Origin: Ferroglobus placidus DSM 10642
Lineage (GTDB): Archaea > Halobacteriota > Archaeoglobi > Archaeoglobales > Archaeoglobaceae
Reading direction: 5' to 3'
DNA length: 32,000 nt
NCBI RefSeq assembly: GCF_000025505.1
Contig: NC_013849.1
Location: 210,001 to 242,000 of the forward strand
Positions 7,635-18,040 of the stretch are shown one piece after another (the first letter of the stretch is position 1; each line of letters opens with the position of its first letter). The notes under the pieces are model-generated. The model was given only the letters and a program-made list of their open reading frames with translations, ran no database searches and was not told the origin of the DNA. The position numbers and the translations under genes were made by a program.

Positions 7635-9056
7635 ATGGACGTGAAAATAGGACTGGAAGTGCACGTTCAGCTGAATAAATTAAAGACGAAGCTCTTCTGT
7701 TCATGCTCACTCGATTATCATAAAGACGAGCCGAACACTCATGTTTGTCCGGTATGCCTCGGATTGCCGGGAGCCATGCCAGTTTTGAACGAAGAAGCTG
7801 TAAAAGCAGCTGTAAAAGTTGCCTTAGCTTTAAATGCGGAAGTTCAGCCTGTTACCATATTCGACAGAAAGAACTACTTCTACCCCGATCTTCCCAAAGG
7901 TTTTCAGATAAGCCAGTACGACATGCCCCTCGCCAAAGGTGGATACGTAGTGATAGAAACTGAAAACGGGGAGAAGAGAATAGACCTCAAGAGAATACAC
8001 ATGGAAGAAGATCCGGGCAAGCTCGTTTACAAAGGAAGCATAACCACAGCAAAATACAGCCTGATAGACTACAACAGAAGCGGAGCTCCCTTGCTTGAGA
8101 TCGTCACAGAGCCGGTGATTAGCTCTCCTAAAGAGGCGAGACTTTTCCTAAACAAGCTCAGGATTATTTTGGAGTACTTAGACGTTTTCGACAGCGAGCT
8201 CGAAGGAGCTATGAGAGTTGACGCAAACATAAGCATAGCTGGAGGAGGGAGAGTAGAGATAAAGAACATCTCAAGCTTCAAAGGAGTGGAAAAAGCTCTT
8301 ACTTACGAGATTACGAGGCAAAAGAATTTGCTGAAGAGGGGGATGAAAGTAGAAAGAGAGACGAGACATTTCGATGAAGCGAACAACATAACAGTATCCC
8401 TCAGAAGCAAAGAGGAAGAGCAAGATTACAGATACTTCCCCGAGCCCGATCTCGTTCCAGTTTATACGTCAGAGTTTATCGAGATAGCCAAGGCTGAACT
8501 TCCAGAAATGCCGGAGGAGAAGAGAGAAAGGCTCATGAGAGAATACGGAATCAGCTTGGAGAAGGCGAAAATCCTTGTTCTCGACCCTAAAATGGCTGAT
8601 TACTTCGAGATCGTCGCTAAAGAAGTTGATCCGAAAGTTGCCGCGAGCTGGATAGTCGATGTTTTCAGGGGGGAGCTTAACTATAGAAGCATGAGTTTCA
8701 GAGAAGCTTTCAACGTTTTCAAGCCCGAAGAGTTCGTAAAACTTCTGAAACTCTTTCTTGAGGAAAAAATAACGGAAAAAGGAGTCGTGGAAGTTATAAG
8801 GAAAAAGCTCGACGAAGGGGGAGAGGTGGAAGAAATAATAGAGAAAGAAAAGCTTTACGCGATTCCAAAATCCGAAATTGTGAGACTGTGTAAAGAAGCG
8901 ATAGAAAAGAATCCAAAAGCCGTAGAAGACTACAAAGCCGGCAAAAAACAGGCTGCGAATTTCCTGGTTGGGTACGTGATGAAAGCGACAAGAGGAAGAG
9001 CTGATCCGGCTGAAACCGCGAAAATTATAAGGGAAATGCTTGAGAAACTTACTTGA
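7635..9056 (+). CDS. gatB: Asp-tRNA(Asn)/Glu-tRNA(Gln) amidotransferase subunit B
   Basis: It shows [41 protein letters not shown] and a C-terminal GatB/YqeY tail ([18 protein letters not shown]). The 473-aa length fits GatB rather than GatE. Confidence 0.9.
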
Positions 9057-9420
9057 CGATATTTTCCTTTCTCGAAATAAATTTCTCTATCTTTTCAACT
9101 AATTCCATCTTTTTTATGGGCTTTTCAATTATATCCACTGCTCCAGCCTTTAGCATCTCCTTCCCCTTGTGAGGAGCGTAAGCGGTGATGGCTAACACGA
9201 CGGCGTTAGGATCAATGGACTTTATAATTTTCGTCGCCGTAATTCCGTCCATTTTTGGCATGAGAATGTCCATCAAAACGATATCGGGTTTGTGTTTTTT
9301 GTACAACTCTATAGCCTCCTCTCCATTCGTAGCTGTTATGACTTCGTAATACTCGGAGAGCATCATTTTTAGCAGATCAAGTAAGATTAAATCATCGTCA
9401 ACGACCAGCACCTTTCTCAT
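9049..9420 (-). CDS. stand-alone CheY-like response regulator receiver domain
   Basis: The 123-aa product starts VLVVDDD and has the phospho-acceptor context [10 protein letters not shown], a T (AITA) and a K (KP). GGAGGTG lies 7 nt upstream of the ATG. The 3' end overlaps gatB by 8 bp in convergent orientation. Confidence 0.85.
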
Positions 9421-9570
9421 CAGTGCACCTCCAGTTTTTCATTATTGTGATAGTTATGTTGAAAGTACTTAATCTTTTCGGTAATAGATACTTTTTGACC
9501 CTTTAACAAACGATAATTACTATGAGAATAGTAAGTTTTAATTAGGGTGCAGCGATGAAAAATAAATTAG

Positions 9571-11097
9571 ATGCTAAAACTGAAGCTCCGAAAAAAGGAA
9601 AAAGACGAAAAAGAAGTTCCTCAAGAAGTTGACGAAGTTCCTATAGACGTTAACTTTCCCGAAGGTTACGAGGTTGCAGAGGACTACTGGATAGAGGAGC
9701 CATACTCCAAAATCTTCATCTTATTCGATCCGAAGGAGGAGGAGTATTTATACTACGTCTCAACACCCGTTCTGAACGAATACGAGAAGTCGATATACTA
9801 CGTCGTCGAAGATCTAATTCCAGAATTCGTTTCCTCCGACACCGAAGATAAGGTTGGGTATTTGAGAAGCGTTTTCGAGGAAATTGTGAAAGACATAGGA
9901 TTCAAACTTTCGGAAATCTCAAAGGAGAAGATATTTTACTACTTAAAATGTGACTTCATAGAGTTCGGACCGATCACTCCTCTTATGAAGGATCGTCTGC
10001 TTGAGGATATAAGCTGTAACGGGTACGGCAAGCCTATTTATGTTTATCACCGCAACTATCAGAACTTGCGGACGAACGTTGTTTTTTCCGAGGACGAGCT
10101 CGACAGCTTCATAATCAAGCTTGCCCAGCAGTGCGGGAAGCACATAAGCATAGCTGAGCCTATGCTCGATGCTACTCTGCCAGACGGAAGCAGAATTCAG
10201 ATGACTCTGGGGAGAGAAGTAACTGACCACGGCTCGACGTTCACGATAAGAAAATTCAGAGACGTTCCTCTTACTCCTATAGACCTAATAGCTTGGAGAA
10301 CCTTCAGCTTGGAGGAAATGGCTTACCTCTGGCTGTGCATAGAAAACAAAAAGAACTTGATATTCGCCGGAGGAACTGCAAGCGGTAAAACGACGAGCAT
10401 GAACGCAATAAGCCTATTCATTCCGAAGAACGCTAAGATCGTGAGCATAGAAGATACGAGAGAAGTAATGCTCCCCCACGAAAACTGGATTCCGGCTGTG
10501 ACGAGAGAAGGTGTTGGAGGGAAAGAGATAGACATGTACGAGCTGCTCAGAGCAGCTCTGAGACAGAGACCTGAGTACATAATAGTCGGAGAAGTTAGAG
10601 GTAAGGAAGCTCTAACTCTGTTCCAGGCTATGTCAACCGGACACACAACCTATTCCACTTTGCATGCGGACAGCGTGAACGGAGTAATTCATCGATTGGA
10701 GAATCCGCCGATAAACGTGCCGAGGAGCATGATAGAAGCTCTCGACATAATAAGCATACAAGCTCAGGTTTACCTCGGAAATAAAAGAGTGAGAAGAAAT
10801 TTGGAAATAGCAGAAATAGTGGGAATGGACCCCCACACAAAGATAATAAAGACTACAACAGTCTTCGCTTGGGACAGCGAAAAAGACGAACACCTAATGA
10901 TCGGCTCCTCAAAAGTTCTCGAAGAAATAAGAAAAATGAGAGCTTGGAGCAGAAGAGAACTGGAAGAAGAACTCGAAACAAGAAAAAAAGTCCTGAAGTG
11001 GATGCTCGATAACAACATCAGAGACTACAAAGAAGTAGCTAAAATAATTCACTCGTATCAGAGCGATAAGGATAGCGTTTTGAGGATGATCTCATGA
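9571..11097 (+). CDS. FlaI/PilB-like type IV filament (archaeal T4P/archaellum family) assembly ATPase
   Basis: It has Walker A (GGTASGKTT), Walker B/Asp box (EYIIVGEVRG) and a His box (TGHTTYSTLHA). The 508-aa length fits the family. Confidence 0.85.
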   Translation: MLKLKLRKKEKDEKEVPQEVDEVPIDVNFPEGYEVAEDYWIEEPYSKIFILFDPKEEEYLYYVSTPVLNEYEKSIYYVVEDLIPEFVSSDTEDKVGYLRSVFEEIVKDIGFKLSEISKEKIFYYLKCDFIEFGPITPLMKDRLLEDISCNGYGKPIYVYHRNYQNLRTNVVFSEDELDSFIIKLAQQCGKHISIAEPMLDATLPDGSRIQMTLGREVTDHGSTFTIRKFRDVPLTPIDLIAWRTFSLEEMAYLWLCIENKKNLIFAGGTASGKTTSMNAISLFIPKNAKIVSIEDTREVMLPHENWIPAVTREGVGGKEIDMYELLRAALRQRPEYIIVGEVRGKEALTLFQAMSTGHTTYSTLHADSVNGVIHRLENPPINVPRSMIEALDIISIQAQVYLGNKRVRRNLEIAEIVGMDPHTKIIKTTTVFAWDSEKDEHLMIGSSKVLEEIRKMRAWSRRELEEELETRKKVLKWMLDNNIRDYKEVAKIIHSYQSDKDSVLRMIS

Positions 11098-13775: not shown

Positions 13776-13809
13776 GAAGCGTTGTAAGAAGGAAGGTATT
13801 AAAATGTTT

Positions 13810-14120
13810 GGTGGGCGCGCCTCCGGTCGACCCTTCCGGGCGGAGCTATCCGCTCCTCGGACTCTCCTCTCCGCACCCCCGAAAGCGCCGAACGTCCGGG
13901 GTTAGCCTGCTCCCTTCCGGGCCTGGGCCGGTCCCCCCGGCAAACACGGCGGACATCCCCTCCGGGAAGCCCAGCCGTGACCGCCGGCCCTTCGGGACGG
14001 AGATTCTGCAAGCCCGAGGAGCTCTTCACCCCGCCCTTCCGGGCCTTCCTTCGGCTTCGGCCCCCGCATGACGACGGTTTCGGGTTACAGGGGACGCCGA
14101 ACCCCCCGGCCTAGCCCACC
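13810..14120 (-). ncRNA. ffs: signal recognition particle 7S RNA (archaeal type)
   Basis: This is a ~311-nt GC-rich island in AT-rich surroundings. The minus strand reads 5'-GGUGGGCUAGGCCGGGGGGUUCGGCGUCCCCUGUAACCCGAAACC...CCAGGCCCGGAAGGGAGCAGGCUAACC...GCGCGCCCACC-3'. The 5' GGUGGGC pairs perfectly with the 3' GCCCACC. The 5'-domain loops and the helix-8-like GGAAGGGAGCA motif match archaeal SRP RNA. Ends are accurate to about +/-5 nt. Confidence 0.85.
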
Positions 14121-14141
14121 ATAATATAGTGCGCGACAAAG

Positions 14142-14149
14142 TATATTAA
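14142..14149 (-). promoter_or_regulatory. TATA box for the SRP RNA gene
   Basis: The minus strand reads TTAATATA, centred about 26 nt upstream of the inferred RNA 5' end at 14120. Confidence 0.5.
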
Positions 14150-14159
14150 TGTTTGCTCT

Positions 14160-14453
14160 CTAAAATTTCGTCTTCTTTTTCACTATTTCCGCCAAAACTC
14201 TGCCCTCGTCGGTCAAACTTATTTTATCTCCAACTGTAATGCACGAAGCTTTTTCGAGGGTGTCGAGATGAAATTTGAGAAGCTTTTCGTCAATCTTAAG
14301 CTCCTTTTTCAATTCCTCTAAACTCTTTTCACTTTCATTAAGCAGAGCGAGAATTCTCCTCCTTATCGAATTCGATATAGCCATCTTAAACCTCTTCCTG
14401 TACTCCTCAGCTTCTTCAGTCGATTTTGCCGAAATCCATTCCTCGAACTTCAC
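14160..14453 (-). CDS. ArsR-family winged-helix transcriptional regulator (small)
   Basis: The segment SIRRRILALLNESEKSLEELKKELKIDEKLLKFHLDTLEKA fits the ArsR HTH pattern. The track start is GTG 14453. ATG 14384 is an alternative, because a TATA-like element sits at ~14458-14468. Confidence 0.6.
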   Translation of the reverse strand: MKFEEWISAKSTEEAEEYRKRFKMAISNSIRRRILALLNESEKSLEELKKELKIDEKLLKFHLDTLEKASCITVGDKISLTDEGRVLAEIVKKKTKF

Positions 14454-15207: not shown

Positions 15208-15279
15208 ACTTCTACTTCGAATTTTTACTCTTAAATTTTTTCGAAAGAATTTGTGACGAGAGAATTTCGACGAACGAGC

Positions 15280-15336
15280 CATGCGGGGGGAGGGATTTGA
15301 ACCCTCGAACCCCTACGGGACGGGACCCTGAATCCC
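15280..15336 (-). repeat. attL: orphan copy of the 3' portion of tRNA-Leu (57-bp direct repeat)
   Basis: The sequence catgcggggggagggatttgaaccctcgaacccctacgggacgggaccctgaatccc is identical to 17906-17962. Confidence 0.9.
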
Positions 15337-15467
15337 TCAGAGTTTAATTTTTCTTCATTCTGAATGCTTTTTATGGCTTCTTCTAAGAGTTGGGAGAGCT
15401 TTATCTTATTCTGTTTCGCCCACTCCAGTAATTCAGCGTCGATATACGCACTCGTTCTTTTCTTCAT
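15283..15467 (-). pseudogene. Int(N): N-terminal fragment of the partitioned SSV-type integrase (RHH-like 44 aa plus att-encoded peptide)
   Basis: The fragment reads MKKRTSAYIDAELLEWAKQNKIKLSQLLEEAIKSIQNEEKLNSE, then the att-encoded GFRVPSRRGSRVQIPPPA. ATG 15467 has GGAGTGAT upstream and a TTTATATA box at ~15488-15495. The ORF then reads out into flanking DNA. Confidence 0.7.
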
Positions 15468-15662
15468 TTTATCACTCCAATTAAATTTATATAAAGTTAT
15501 GAAGTTAAGCGGTAATCCCAATTAACCTTAAAATTGTCGTCGACAATGATAAGCAGAGCGATTCTAATCTAAATAGCAAACTACTTTAAGAAAGTCAATC
15601 TCACCGATCGCTGGTAAAAAAATCAAATAAAAATTAAAAGCAAAAAATTAACGGCTTAGAAC

Positions 15663-15938
15663 TCACTCCCAACGCTCAAGAACACTCCGAAGAGTTTCTA
15701 TATCATTTCTGGCAATCAAATCGAGAATTATCGAGGTTTTTCGAATGTAATAGCTAATTTCTGCCAAGATGCAAAGCTGTAAATTCTCCCTGCAGTTCGG
15801 AGCTTCATACTGGCATGACTTGCAGACTCCGTTCAAGAAAGAATTGATTCCTCTTGGTTTTCTCTCCGATGTTTCTTGCTTCATTTCAAACTCCCCAAGT
15901 TCTAACATGTAACACAAATCGCTTCCAGAAAAACTCAT
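15663..15938 (-). CDS. hypothetical Cys-rich protein (91 aa)
   Basis: Start ATG 15938 overlaps the upstream gene's stop as ATGA (15935-15938). It contains CKSCQYEAPNCRENLQLC. No family was recognised. Confidence 0.4.
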   Translation of the reverse strand: MSFSGSDLCYMLELGEFEMKQETSERKPRGINSFLNGVCKSCQYEAPNCRENLQLCILAEISYYIRKTSIILDLIARNDIETLRSVLERWE

Positions 15939-16408
15939 TTGATTGTTTTCAACATTCTTTTGATTCTTCCTCTCCATCTTTCGACGATCCCTCTAACATC
16001 GTGCTTAACCGGCATTTTACTCGTCCCATATATCAGGTATTTGGCATACTCCACATTGTTGCTGATTGCATACTTCAGTTTTCCAAGCTTCGTTGAAACC
16101 CACGCAGCTCTGTATCTTCCAGTTCTCACCGGAGCGGTAGCTTTTATCTCTCCTTCGAGTTCGAAAACAGCCATCTGTAGCTTCTTATCGACCTTATCTG
16201 GGAGTGACTTTTTGAGATCCTCCAGATTTTTGATTGTTCTATCAAGCCCTTCGATTCTGATAGAAATTCCCAGAGATGTTCTCGATCCAGCTACTGGAAC
16301 CGATCCAGATGTACCAACTCGTGTAGAAGTCCTCCCTCTCGCTTTAAGTCTTCTCGCTGTACTCAACCCGATGCGTCTCCCCACCCTTCGTACCCACATC
16401 GAACACAT
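15935..16408 (-). CDS. HK97-gp10-like head-tail (tail completion) protein homologue
   Basis: The segment IEGLDRTIKNLEDLKKSLPDKVDKKLQMAVFELEGEIKATAPVRTGRYRAAWVS...NNVEYAKYLIYGTSKMP matches the HK97-gp10_like pattern recalled from memory (EGLdel...L, aPvdTGxLrxS, veYAxyvEfGTskm). The N-terminal ~50 aa are Arg/Ser/Thr-rich. Confidence 0.6.
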   Translation of the reverse strand: MCSMWVRRVGRRIGLSTARRLKARGRTSTRVGTSGSVPVAGSRTSLGISIRIEGLDRTIKNLEDLKKSLPDKVDKKLQMAVFELEGEIKATAPVRTGRYRAAWVSTKLGKLKYAISNNVEYAKYLIYGTSKMPVKHDVRGIVERWRGRIKRMLKTIK

Positions 16409-16507
16409 TTCGCAGGCATTTTCAACACCTCTTTAATCTCTTTATTTTCTTTACATTCTTTACTATGAAACGTAAAGTATTTAAAATTTTCGTTACTTAC
16501 TTTACTT

Positions 16508-16663
16508 ATGGAAAGCGATGAAAGAATCCTTGATGTTGCCACGCTGAGTTCAAAATACCAGATAACTATAACAAAAGCGATTCGAGAGAAGCTTGGACTT
16601 ACGGCAGGGGATAGAGTCGTGTTTGTTGAGAAAGATGGCGAAATCATCCTGAGAAAAGCATGA
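16508..16663 (+). CDS. AbrB/SpoVT/MazE-type antitoxin-like DNA-binding protein (51 aa)
   Basis: This gene is not in the ORF track because it is under 60 aa. Manual translation gives MESDERILDVATLSSKYQITITKAIREKLGLTAGDRVVFVEKDGEIILRKA, which fits the swapped-hairpin AbrB pattern (SKYQITIPKxIRExLGLxxGD). Its stop overlaps the next gene's ATG (ATGA at 16660-16663). Confidence 0.7.
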   Translation: MESDERILDVATLSSKYQITITKAIREKLGLTAGDRVVFVEKDGEIILRKA

Positions 16664-16926
16664 AGTTCACAAATCACATAAGAGAACGAATGCTGGAATA
16701 CAATATCTCAGAGCAGGAGGTCTTAGAAGCCATCAAAGAGCCTGACAGCCTCTACCTTGATGTCCTGACTGGCCGCTTTGTGGCGGTTAAGAAAACTGGA
16801 AGCAAAGCCATTGTTGCGGTGTTTGAAAAGAACGATGAAACCACATTGATCACCGTATTCCCGACCAGCAAGATTAATAAGGTGGTTGAGAGTAGAATTA
16901 GGAGTGGAAGGTGGATCGAGATATGA
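16660..16926 (+). CDS. DUF4258-family protein (putative toxin, BECR/RNase-like)
   Basis: The sequence FTNHIRERMLEYNISEQEVLEAI...AIVAVFEKNDETTLITVFP fits the DUF4258 pattern (ftxHaxeRmxeRgIsxeev). Confidence 0.6.
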   Translation: MKFTNHIRERMLEYNISEQEVLEAIKEPDSLYLDVLTGRFVAVKKTGSKAIVAVFEKNDETTLITVFPTSKINKVVESRIRSGRWIEI

Positions 16927-17135
16927 TGGTTAAATATGATAGAGAGGCCGACATTCTGTATCTGAAATTTTCAGACACGAAACCGGTAGATTCGGACATG
17001 CTGAATGACGATGTAGTTGTCTCCTTCGATGAGAACGGCGAGATTGTAGGTATGGAAATCTGGAGGGCTAAGGAGCTGATTCTGCCCGCTTTCCTGCAGT
17101 ATCTGAAAGAAATGCGGGAGGTTGTTAAGAGGTAG
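16923..17135 (+). CDS. DUF2283-family protein (putative cognate antitoxin/partner)
   Basis: The sequence MMVKYDREADILYLKFSD...VVVSFDENGEIVGMEIWRAKEL fits the DUF2283 pattern (YDxEADxLYi...dGxivGiEi). ATG 16923 overlaps the upstream stop (ATGA at 16923-16926). The track's GTG 16911 start is less likely. Confidence 0.6.
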   Translation: MMVKYDREADILYLKFSDTKPVDSDMLNDDVVVSFDENGEIVGMEIWRAKELILPAFLQYLKEMREVVKR

Positions 17136-17138
17136 TTT

Positions 17139-17962
17139 TCATTTCAGAATCCTGAAGTCCTTCCAATACCTCTCATAGATCTTCTTCAACTCTTCTTCAT
17201 CCTGAAAGTCATAGTGATTCAAGTCCACATCGCCCCTCAGCGAATGACCCATGAGGATCTTTTTCACGGCGGTTGGCATACCCAACCTGTCGCTCTGCTG
17301 TGAGAAGAACTTACGCATGTGCTTGAGCCTGAGTTTTGAATTCAACTTACTGAAATGATAATGGATCGACTTCTTCGAGAAAAGCCGTTTCGGTTTCGTG
17401 CTGAGGTACTCGATTAAAGCTTCTTTAGCCTCCTGGGATATAGATCGTCCTTCTCTCGATGTCGATATTTTCAGGCTTAAGGCGGTAAACCTCCTCAGAA
17501 CGCATCCCTGATGTTGCCGCCAGCAATACGGCGGCTTTTAGCTTCAGATTGTATGGATAAGTTAGGGTTTCAATTTCTTTTATCAGATCTCTTATGTCTT
17601 CAACCTTAATAACAGCTTTCTTTCTCCGTTTAGGGATCTTCGGCAGTTCAATACTCTTTGCTAATGGATAATTTATAAATTTCAAGAATGCTCGGATATA
17701 GATAGTCAACCTCCGGGCGTAACGATGGGAGTACTTGGATTTTATTTCGTTTATATAAATAATAATAGCGTCATCTTTAAGATTAAAATTCAGCCATTTT
17801 AATAATTTTTCAGCTGAGCTGATATATCTTCTCTTTTCGTCGTTTGAGATATCTTTAAGTTGAATATGTTTTTTAAAACTCTCAAATTTTTTAAGAATCT
17901 GATCGCATGCGGGGGGAGGGATTTGAACCCTCGAACCCCTACGGGACGGGACCCTGAATCCC
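17139..17962 (-). pseudogene. Int(C): C-terminal catalytic fragment of the SSV-type tyrosine integrase, with an internal frameshift near 17425-17430
   Basis: The reading frame leaves the att repeat (GFRVPSRRGSRVQIPPPA) into CDQILKKFESF...ATSGMRSEEVYRL...IYIPGG and then hits a stop. The frame offset by one nucleotide continues AKEALIEYLSTKPKRLFSKKSIHYHFSKLNSKLRLKHMRKFF...MGHSLRGDVDLNHYD. These are tyrosine-recombinase-like Arg, KHxR, GH and Tyr regions. Confidence 0.8.
17906..17962 (-). repeat. attR: 57-bp direct repeat forming the 3' portion of the intact tRNA-Leu
   Basis: It is identical to 15280-15336. Confidence 0.9.
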
Positions 17963-17992
17963 GCGCCTTTGTCCTGGCTCGGCAACCCCCGC
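17908..17992 (-). tRNA. tRNA-Leu (anticodon CAG), class II with a long variable arm
   Basis: The minus strand reads GCGGGGGUUGCCGAGCCAGGACAAAGGCGCGGGAUUCAGGGUCCCGUCCCGUAGGGGUUCGAGGGUUCAAAUCCCUCCCCCCGCA. Hand folding gives a 7-bp acceptor stem, anticodon stem CGGGA/UCCCG, loop UUCAGGG, a long variable arm and a T-arm GAGGG-UUCAAAU-CCCUC. No CCA is encoded and there is no intron. Confidence 0.9.
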
Positions 17993-18040
17993 AGTTTTTA
18001 TGATTTACTTAACTACCGATTAAATAAGTTTGTGGTAATT

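Follow-up and report, generated by a model that had tools for sequence, protein, structure and literature searches.

The question raised by this locus is whether a short stretch of the genome of Ferroglobus placidus DSM 10642, bracketed by two copies of part of a transfer RNA (tRNA) gene, is an integrated mobile element whose integrase gene was cut in two by its own insertion, and whether such an element could still move. The locus lies in a window of 32,000 nucleotides (the whole stretch of DNA that was analysed), to which all positions refer unless another locus is named. A first-pass annotation, made from the letters of the window without database searches, had proposed an element of this kind with a split integrase gene of the SSV type. 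The analysis described here indicates that the locus is very probably a fossil mobile element integrated in tRNA-Leu(CAG), its integrase having been split by the insertion and then broken by a deletion. The coordinates of the features are collected in Table 1.

Comparison of the two copies confirmed that the direct repeat at 15280-15336 and 17906-17962 is exact over 57 bp. The spacing of the copies is 2626 nucleotides, and the interior of 2,569 bp between them has a G+C content of 40%, against 42-45% in the flanks. The membrane-protein gene to the left of the element is Ferp_0256 of F. placidus DSM 10642 (100% identity). The sole tRNA of the 32-kb window is a tRNA-Leu(CAG) on the minus strand, called by ARAGORN at 17907-17993 and by the Rfam model RF00005 at 17908-17992 (47 bits, gathering score 29). 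The right repeat spans the 5' strand of the anticodon stem, the anticodon loop, the long variable arm, the T arm and the 3' strand of the acceptor stem, and ends 2-3 nt beyond the discriminator of the tRNA; at the left repeat no tRNA was called by ARAGORN. The description of the right copy as the 3' part of an intact tRNA gene, and of the left one as an orphan, is therefore borne out. It was also observed that the last three bases of the left repeat (15280-15282, CAT, which is ATG on the minus strand) provide the ORF (open reading frame) of Ferp_0256 with an upstream in-frame start, by which it is lengthened from 238 to 263 amino acids; the public gene calls use an internal Met.

Two minus-strand ORFs, 15231..15521 and 17425..17985, cross the repeats in one frame. 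These half-ORFs of the integrase read the sense strand of the tRNA, and translation confirmed that both encode the same peptide, GFRVPSRRGSRVQIPPPA, at the attachment (att) site. The left half, Int(N), supplies an element-encoded N-terminus of 44 amino acids (MKKRTSAYIDAELLEWAKQNKIKLSQLLEEAIKSIQNEEKLNSE) that starts at the ATG 15467-15465, then reads GFRVPSRRGSRVQIPPPA across the repeat and runs on for 16 residues into the host flank. The 44-residue domain resembles ribbon-helix-helix/CcdA-like proteins (Pfam CcdA, E 2.4e-4; PHROG Arc-like repressor, E 0.016), and it is 64% identical to the N-terminus of P0017, an uninterrupted integrase encoded at locus L001, and 70% identical to that of L102. 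The TATA box and Shine-Dalgarno sequence that had been ascribed to this half were both located, the former as TTTATATAAA and the latter as GGAGTGAT directly upstream of the ATG. The same context recurs in L001 and L102, where a near-identical box, CTTTATATAAAT, followed by ATGAAGAAG, lies ahead of the homologous genes. The TATA-like box is thus a putative promoter element, as far as can be judged from its sequence, and Int(N) may still be made from this conserved promoter as a ribbon-helix-helix protein of 78 amino acids. About 40 nt upstream of the box lies the palindrome ATTGTCG-T-CGACAAT (15533-15547), which could be a candidate operator for ribbon-helix-helix or AbrB proteins.

The right half, Int(C), lacks its own promoter and its own start codon, unless a TTG within the tRNA is counted. 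It had been described as continuing into a full recombinase body, which is not the case, since it stops at the TAA 17425-17427 after ...IDIERRTIYIPGG, the last residues of the joined ORF before this stop being ...ENIDIERRTIYIPGG. Three-frame translation located the remainder of the catalytic domain (KHMRKFF, MGHS, NHYDF) in another frame, at 17139-~17436. An integrase of about the 320 amino acids that had been predicted is indeed obtained when the two halves are joined across one repeat (318 amino acids), but only after in silico correction of the frame, and the product still lacks 15-16 residues; the intact ancestral integrase would have been of ~334 amino acids. The rejoined, frame-corrected protein resembles tyrosine recombinases, as had been expected: it matches the integrase families PHROG_1 (1.8e-19) and PHROG_5127 (1.6e-11, over residues 29-315), and Pfam PF00589 covers its residues 162-223.

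The break in the frame was traced to a single gap of 47 columns at ~17436/17437 in a MAFFT DNA alignment of Int(C) with L095, L002, L088 and L087. Because this 47-nt deletion shifts the frame, the joined ORF stops after 221 codons. Alignment with 15 homologues showed that the residues missing from the window copy (~15-16, RAEIAKDYEDRVTFF) form a beta-hairpin that carries a near-invariant Lys. Across the family alignments the signature R...K...HxxR...H...Y is invariant, and consists of the Arg of ATSGxR, the Lys of the hairpin, K-H-x-R, G-H and Y; residues K258, R261, H284 and Y295 fall in invariant columns of the homologue protein alignment. The window copy retains the codons for Arg, HxxR, His and Tyr, with the Lys hairpin gone and the frame broken. 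Since the deletion both takes the Lys hairpin and breaks the frame, the integrase is regarded as dead: the window protein would belong to the tyrosine-recombinase family by descent and not as an active enzyme, and the native gene is predicted to be inactive. The deletion is present in independent assemblies and is therefore not an assembly error. One Logan contig, from five samples, is identical to window positions 15307-17935, a second, which comes from a different run, agrees with 15366-17872 save for one indel elsewhere, and the deletion junction is exact in the Logan assemblies L141 and L142. Another copy of the family, L093, is also fragmented by frameshifts.

A total of 125 integrase homologues were found, mostly in Archaeoglobales. 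P0017 is an uninterrupted ORF of 325 amino acids, 47% identical over its full length to the joined window protein, in which a 44-residue N-terminus is followed by a stretch from GGGTTCAAATCCCGGCGGGCCCG, encoded by the T-arm and acceptor sequence of a tRNA, and then by the recombinase core; its gene adjoins tail-fibre-like genes. P0083 and P0100 are also full-length and contain tRNA-derived peptides. Homologues of Int(C), on the other hand, begin in tRNA genes of the same strand, namely Leu(GAG) in L002 and L088, Leu(TAA) in L087 and Thr(TGT) in L094, and in L102 an Int(N) runs into a tRNA 3' fragment at the end of the contig. The uninterrupted gene of L001 and the Int(C) homologues that start in tRNA genes support the proposal that attP, the site on the element, lies inside the ORF of the integrase and that the gene is split on integration. 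Within the integrase family attP occurs in both orientations relative to the tRNA, antisense in L105 and, as an "RDLNP" peptide, in P0100. The possibility that the att-encoded peptide of the window is antisense to the tRNA, as in these two, was considered and rejected, the window using the sense strand.

The AlphaFold model of P0017 (mean pLDDT, predicted local distance difference test, 88.6) is a confident two-domain recombinase. In this model the first ~40 residues fold into two helices, as would suit a ribbon-helix-helix/CcdA-like domain, and the att-encoded segment (residues ~41-60) is a low-confidence linker between this helical domain and the recombinase. From the latter we infer that arbitrary tRNA-derived peptides are tolerated at this position. 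The model also suggests that the Int(N) fragment might stay functional as a small DNA-binding protein after integration.

Taken together, the structure of the locus would be explained as follows. A circular element would have carried a tyrosine integrase of ~334 amino acids with attP, a 57-bp copy of the 3' part of tRNA-Leu(CAG), inside its ORF, in the linker between the N-terminal ribbon-helix-helix-like domain and the Xer-like core. Recombination of attP with the chromosomal tRNA gene would have inserted the element and rebuilt an intact tRNA, so that Int(C) came to lie beside the tRNA and Int(N), at the opposite end, beside the orphan tRNA fragment, the type of integration known as suicidal or type I. 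Later, Int(C) would have lost 47 nt, by which the hairpin with the catalytic Lys disappeared and the HxxR, His and Tyr motifs were put out of frame. Such an element would be unable to integrate or excise by its own enzyme. Excision by a related integrase acting in trans would in principle still be possible, since the att repeats have remained perfect; no F. placidus homologue that might be a resident helper was present among the named integrase matches, although a genome-wide scan was not made. The element is probably kept passively or by an addiction module.

Suicidal integration of the SSV type has been described for SSV, pTN3 and pT26-2 (PMC7253208; review PMC8371274), and Badel et al. 2020 extended the class to 14 integrases of Archaeoglobales, up to five of them in A. 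profundus (PMC7253208). Att sites of the Leu type with a long variable arm are on record for AprDSM5631_IE2 and AveSNP6_IE2 (PMC7253208), decay of the split int genes is expected (PMC7253208, PMC8371274), and the SSV-type family reportedly needs no separate directionality factor (PMC8371274). Both the mechanism and its presence in Archaeoglobales are thus already published, and the copy in the window is a doubly inactivated fossil. The main text of PMC7253208 does not name F. placidus, and literature searches on integrated elements of F. placidus were uninformative. Integrase fragments of A. profundus DSM 5631 (P0007, P0037 and P0050) are 60-65% identical to the window protein, and proteins of Thermococcales are 32-34% identical to it over 66% of its length; the criterion for the pT26-2-like cluster is a BlastP similarity above 25-35% over 60% of the protein (PMC7253208). 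The pT26-2-related suicidal integrases have in common with the window element an attP within the int ORF and hyperthermophilic hosts of the Archaeoglobales. In contrast to those elements, the window copy is very small (2.6 kb) and carries the additional 47-nt deletion, and its relatives are found terminally in tailed proviruses and not in plasmids of the pT26-2 type.

The designation "SSV-type" was found to hold for the mechanism and not for kinship. Archaeal XerA, and not the SSV1 integrase, comes closest to the enzyme in sequence and in predicted fold. A profile search of PDB retrieved the XerA structures 4a8e of P. abyssi (7e-17) and 5hxy of T. acidophilum (7e-15), and the same two were the top matches of Foldseek (E about 6e-12), whereas the SSV1 integrase was neither among the PDB sequence matches nor among the 50 Foldseek matches listed; a single-sequence search of PDB with the integrase gave nothing useful. 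With the NCBIfam XerA model NF040815, scores of 49 bits for the window protein, 96 for P0017 and 77 for P0001 were obtained, all under the equivalog cutoff of 220. With Pfam PF16795 (Phage_integr_3) the rejoined protein scored 18 bits (E 0.0029), under the gathering score of 27, and weak matches were found in 9 of 16 relatives (best E 9e-5). In the plasmid and phage collections the integrases of pT26-2 and SSV were not matched, the sole match being a weak one to Acidianus pAH1, with none among phages. Archaeal XerA shares with the window family a two-domain organisation, with a SAM-like core-binding domain and a catalytic domain. It differs in being a chromosomal dimer resolvase that acts at dif, encoded by a gene without attP and without the ribbon-helix-helix N-terminal extension; the genes of the window family, unlike that of XerA, sit at the ends of mobile elements beside tRNA genes. 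The SSV1 and SSV2 integrases of the Sulfolobus fuselloviruses, in turn, are like the window family in mechanism, in the partition into Int(N) and Int(C) and in targeting tRNA genes; those viruses are spindle-shaped, whereas the relatives of the window element are tailed.

The cargo of the element is limited to a gp10-like neck gene, an ORF with four conserved Cys (4-Cys ORF) and a three-gene operon of the toxin-antitoxin type. The first-pass annotation had listed one virus-like structural gene and a toxin-antitoxin-like module, which agrees with the HK97-gp10-like, MazE/AbrB, DUF4258 and DUF2283 genes identified here, but it had left out the 4-Cys ORF at 15663..15977. It had also reported that no replication gene was visible; none was found in the element, and neither were capsid or packaging genes. 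Of the origins that it had considered, a decayed element is the better fit, because the 47-nt deletion additionally kills the integrase.

In F. placidus the gp10-like gene carries the annotation HK97 gp10 family phage protein (P0124). It matches Pfam PF04883 at residues 56-128 (57.3 bits, E 3e-15; gathering score 21.4) and PHROG_5 (E 2e-17). Normal gp10 homologues have 106-113 amino acids and lack the N-terminal extension that is present in the window protein. A search of 1.84 billion representatives gave 256 homologues, and among the 150 listed an N-terminal overhang was seen in one distant protein. A motif of this extension, RRVGRRxxLSxAxRLxAR, is conserved between the window (16270-16408, minus strand) and L105 (4145-4350). 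A query with the single gp10 sequence found no match in viral contigs, and a query with the alignment led to tailed proviruses. One homologue, P0126 (66% identity), belongs to the morphogenesis module of L103, a siphovirus-like provirus that ends in the integrase P0003, 61% identical to that of the window; myovirus-like proviruses (L002, L090 and a 17.5-kb IMG/VR contig) terminate in other relatives of the integrase. The 4-Cys ORF has no Pfam or PHROG match, and its homologues are in L105 (two copies) and in the provirus L090/L143, beside the tail chaperone and tape-measure genes. Since homologues of both genes occur in tailed proviruses, the gp10-like gene and the 4-Cys ORF are attributed to the gene pool of the tailed Archaeoglobi viruses that use this family of integrases. 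The origin of the element as a whole is read from its integrase family.

The operon (16508-17135, plus strand) consists of three overlapping genes and is, by domains and layout, putatively a type II toxin-antitoxin-like system, which may favour retention of the element. PADLOC gave no defence-system match for the cargo genes. The DUF4258-DUF2283 pairing was also found in L011, L013 and L105; in L011 (11595-12052) and L013 (150-607) the pairs lie on chromosomal contigs and are 39-44% identical to that of the window. Because it is found in other Archaeoglobi, the pair appears to be a recurrent two-gene module of the class.

Table 1. Features of the integrated element and of its insertion site, in window coordinates.
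Feature	Position	Strand	Remarks
Left att copy	15280..15336	-	Orphan 3' part of tRNA-Leu(CAG), at the junction distal to the intact tRNA; 100% identical to 17906-17962
Int(N) pseudogene/remnant ORF	15231..15467	-	44 element amino acids + 18 att-encoded amino acids + 16 amino acids of host-flank read-through
TATA-like box TTTATATAAA	15486..15495	-	~20 nt upstream of the Int(N) ATG; read from sequence
4-Cys cargo ORF	15663..15977	-	104 amino acids; conserved PxGIxxF..CxxC..C..C.LAE
HK97-gp10-like (tail-completion/Neck1) gene	15935..16408	-	Arg/Gly/Ser-rich N-terminal extension of ~46 amino acids
AbrB/MazE-type small DNA-binding protein	16508..16663	+	Pfam PF04014, E 2.5e-11; first gene of the operon; stop overlaps next start
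DUF4258 protein, putative BECR/RelE-like toxin	16660..16926	+	Pfam PF14076, E 1.3e-8; weak PBECR2 match
DUF2283 protein, putative partner/antitoxin	16923..17135	+	Pfam PF10049, E 6.5e-20; 79% identical to the L105 homologue
Int(C) distal piece	17139..17436	-	Out of frame with the proximal piece; SQEAKEAL...KHMRKFF...MGHS...NHYDF...FRILK (HxxR, His and catalytic Tyr motifs)
Deletion junction in Int(C)	17429..17442	-	Reads TATATC joined to CCAGGAGG on the minus strand
Int(C) proximal piece	17425..17905	-	Core-binding domain and start of the catalytic domain (Arg of ATSGMRSEE); ends at TAA 17425-17427
Right att copy	17906..17962	-	3' part of the intact tRNA and the next 2-3 nt
tRNA-Leu(CAG), intact, integration target	17908..17993	-	ARAGORN; Rfam RF00005, 47 bits

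Several observations weigh against a decayed, immobile insertion and have to be set beside the evidence given above. Neither an empty site nor an excised circle was found that would prove the polarity of the insertion. Among 80 Archaeoglobi loci around ribosomal protein L1, none had the sensor gene, the tRNA and Ferp_0256 together; only two orthologues of Ferp_0256 were found (49-51% identity), in different neighbourhoods and with no tRNA near; and the left flank joined to the repeat had 0 exact matches in the metagenome contigs that were scanned. These searches gave no relative with conserved synteny for comparison with an empty site. Every Logan contig of this strain ends 30 nt inside the repeat, whichever side it comes from, as is expected of a k=31 assembly graph at a duplicated 57-mer; this fits an occupied site in every sample and is uninformative on excision. 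In addition, the 57-bp repeat is perfect and shows no decay, although this is weakly informative over 57 bp, and the toxin-antitoxin function and the present-day immobility are both inferred. Finally, another locus, L105, has five genes in common with the window at a different tRNA-Leu, which fits a natively small lineage better than random erosion of a provirus of 30-40 kb.

L105 is an incomplete 5.8-kb contig (1-5797) from GCA_027061505.1, a metagenome-assembled genome of the Archaeoglobaceae. The identities of its shared genes to those of the window are 72% for gp10 with its extension (P0125), 79% for DUF2283, 61% for AbrB, 55% for DUF4258 and 44% for the 4-Cys ORF, which is present as two ORFs, and it also encodes several small ribbon-helix-helix-like proteins. 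The contig ends in an ORF that resembles a ribbon-helix-helix Int(N) and enters an intact tRNA-Leu(CAA) gene in antisense. Its 5.8 kb showed no gene for capsid, portal, terminase or replication. The order of the modules is broadly alike in the two loci, with several genes rearranged.

On this basis, the window copy could be a recently inactivated member of a natively small (about 3-7 kb), helper-dependent, satellite-like integrative lineage of the tailed viruses of Archaeoglobi, which would carry no more than an integration module, genes for addiction and an altered neck protein of the gp10 type, used to exploit a helper virus or to interfere with it. As the two loci differ in tRNA gene and are opposite in att orientation, their common derived gene set must have changed place one or more times since its formation, and the gp10 extension, nearly absent among the 150 homologues listed of 256, is kept at both; the lack of capsid, portal, terminase and replication genes in L105 points the same way. 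We nevertheless consider this explanation unlikely, though deserving of attention. It rests on two loci, one of them an incomplete contig, and their gene order differs; packaging, interaction with a helper and a function of the gp10 extension lack support; the integrase of the window copy is dead; and the two loci, each eroded separately, could be relatives of a complete virus as yet unsampled. The more specific proposal, that the window element and L105 form an undescribed miniature integrative lineage of satellites that rely on a tailed helper virus with related gp10 and integrase for both replication and packaging, is more doubtful still; their own genes would be limited to a suicidal integration module, an addiction operon, a 4-Cys protein and the gp10-like neck protein with its unique Arg/Gly-rich N-terminal extension. 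pSSVi and pSSVx are satellite plasmids of ~5-6 kb of the Sulfolobus fuselloviruses that lack capsid genes and depend on a helper, pSSVi having an integrase of the SSV type. They serve here only as an analogy for the satellite explanation; the helper in the present case would be a tailed virus, and the window copy is non-functional.

An integrase of type II (lambda/pNOB8-like), which remains intact on integration, would make the left ORF an unrelated CcdA/ribbon-helix-helix regulator that happens to read into the att site. In agreement with this, the 44-residue N-terminus matches CcdA/Arc-like ribbon-helix-helix families by itself, and the recombinase core aligns from ~residue 70 with complete XerA proteins. 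The explanation is nonetheless highly improbable, given that P0017 unites N-terminus, att-like stretch and core in one ORF, that P0083 and P0100 are full-length with their tRNA-derived peptides, that Int(C) of the window could start by itself only at the TTG inside the tRNA, and that both ORFs cross the repeat in the same frame. That part of the tRNA was duplicated by chance or in a segmental event, without site-specific recombination, is scarcely credible: an exact match of 57 bp cannot be put down to chance, the two copies enclose a recombinase gene whose split falls precisely at the repeat, and homologous loci have the same architecture at other tRNA genes.

With a decayed insertion as the preferred explanation, Ferroglobus placidus joins the Archaeoglobales that carry elements with suicidal integrases. 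The locus is a clean, minimal case of the fate that follows integration, in which the split gene decays, here by a single deletion of 47 nt, and both the att repeats and the tRNA of the host are preserved without a flaw. As regards annotation, it accounts for two or three pseudogene fragments and for a "phage" gp10 gene beside tRNA-Leu(CAG). In Archaeoglobi, this family of integrases goes with tailed proviruses, and XerA is a closer relative of it than is the SSV1 integrase, a finding that bears on the origin of suicidal integrases. If the lineage of small elements were true, L105 and the window would give a first hint, on thin evidence, of satellite-like parasites of tailed viruses in hyperthermophilic Archaeoglobi.

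Some observations were also made on the related proviruses and on the rest of the window. L002 is a myovirus-like provirus of Archaeoglobales with a homologous Int(C), fused to tRNA-Leu(GAG), at its end, and at 8915-10515 it carries a reverse transcriptase (RVT_1, 345 amino acids) and bAvd beside tail-fibre-like genes, a cassette like that of a diversity-generating retroelement. In L090 and L143 (IMGVR_UViG_3300037598_000452, 13.2 kb) the order is TerS, TerL, two small ORFs, the 4-Cys ORF, tail chaperone, tape measure, baseplate, fibres and Int(C), and no portal, capsid, sheath or tube genes were seen; these loci may represent a deleted provirus or an unusual tail-only element. Outside the element, an archaeal signal recognition particle (SRP, 7S) RNA was identified on the minus strand at 13809-14121 (Rfam RF01857, 214.5 bits), which is the cause of the spike of 62% G+C at 13800-14200.

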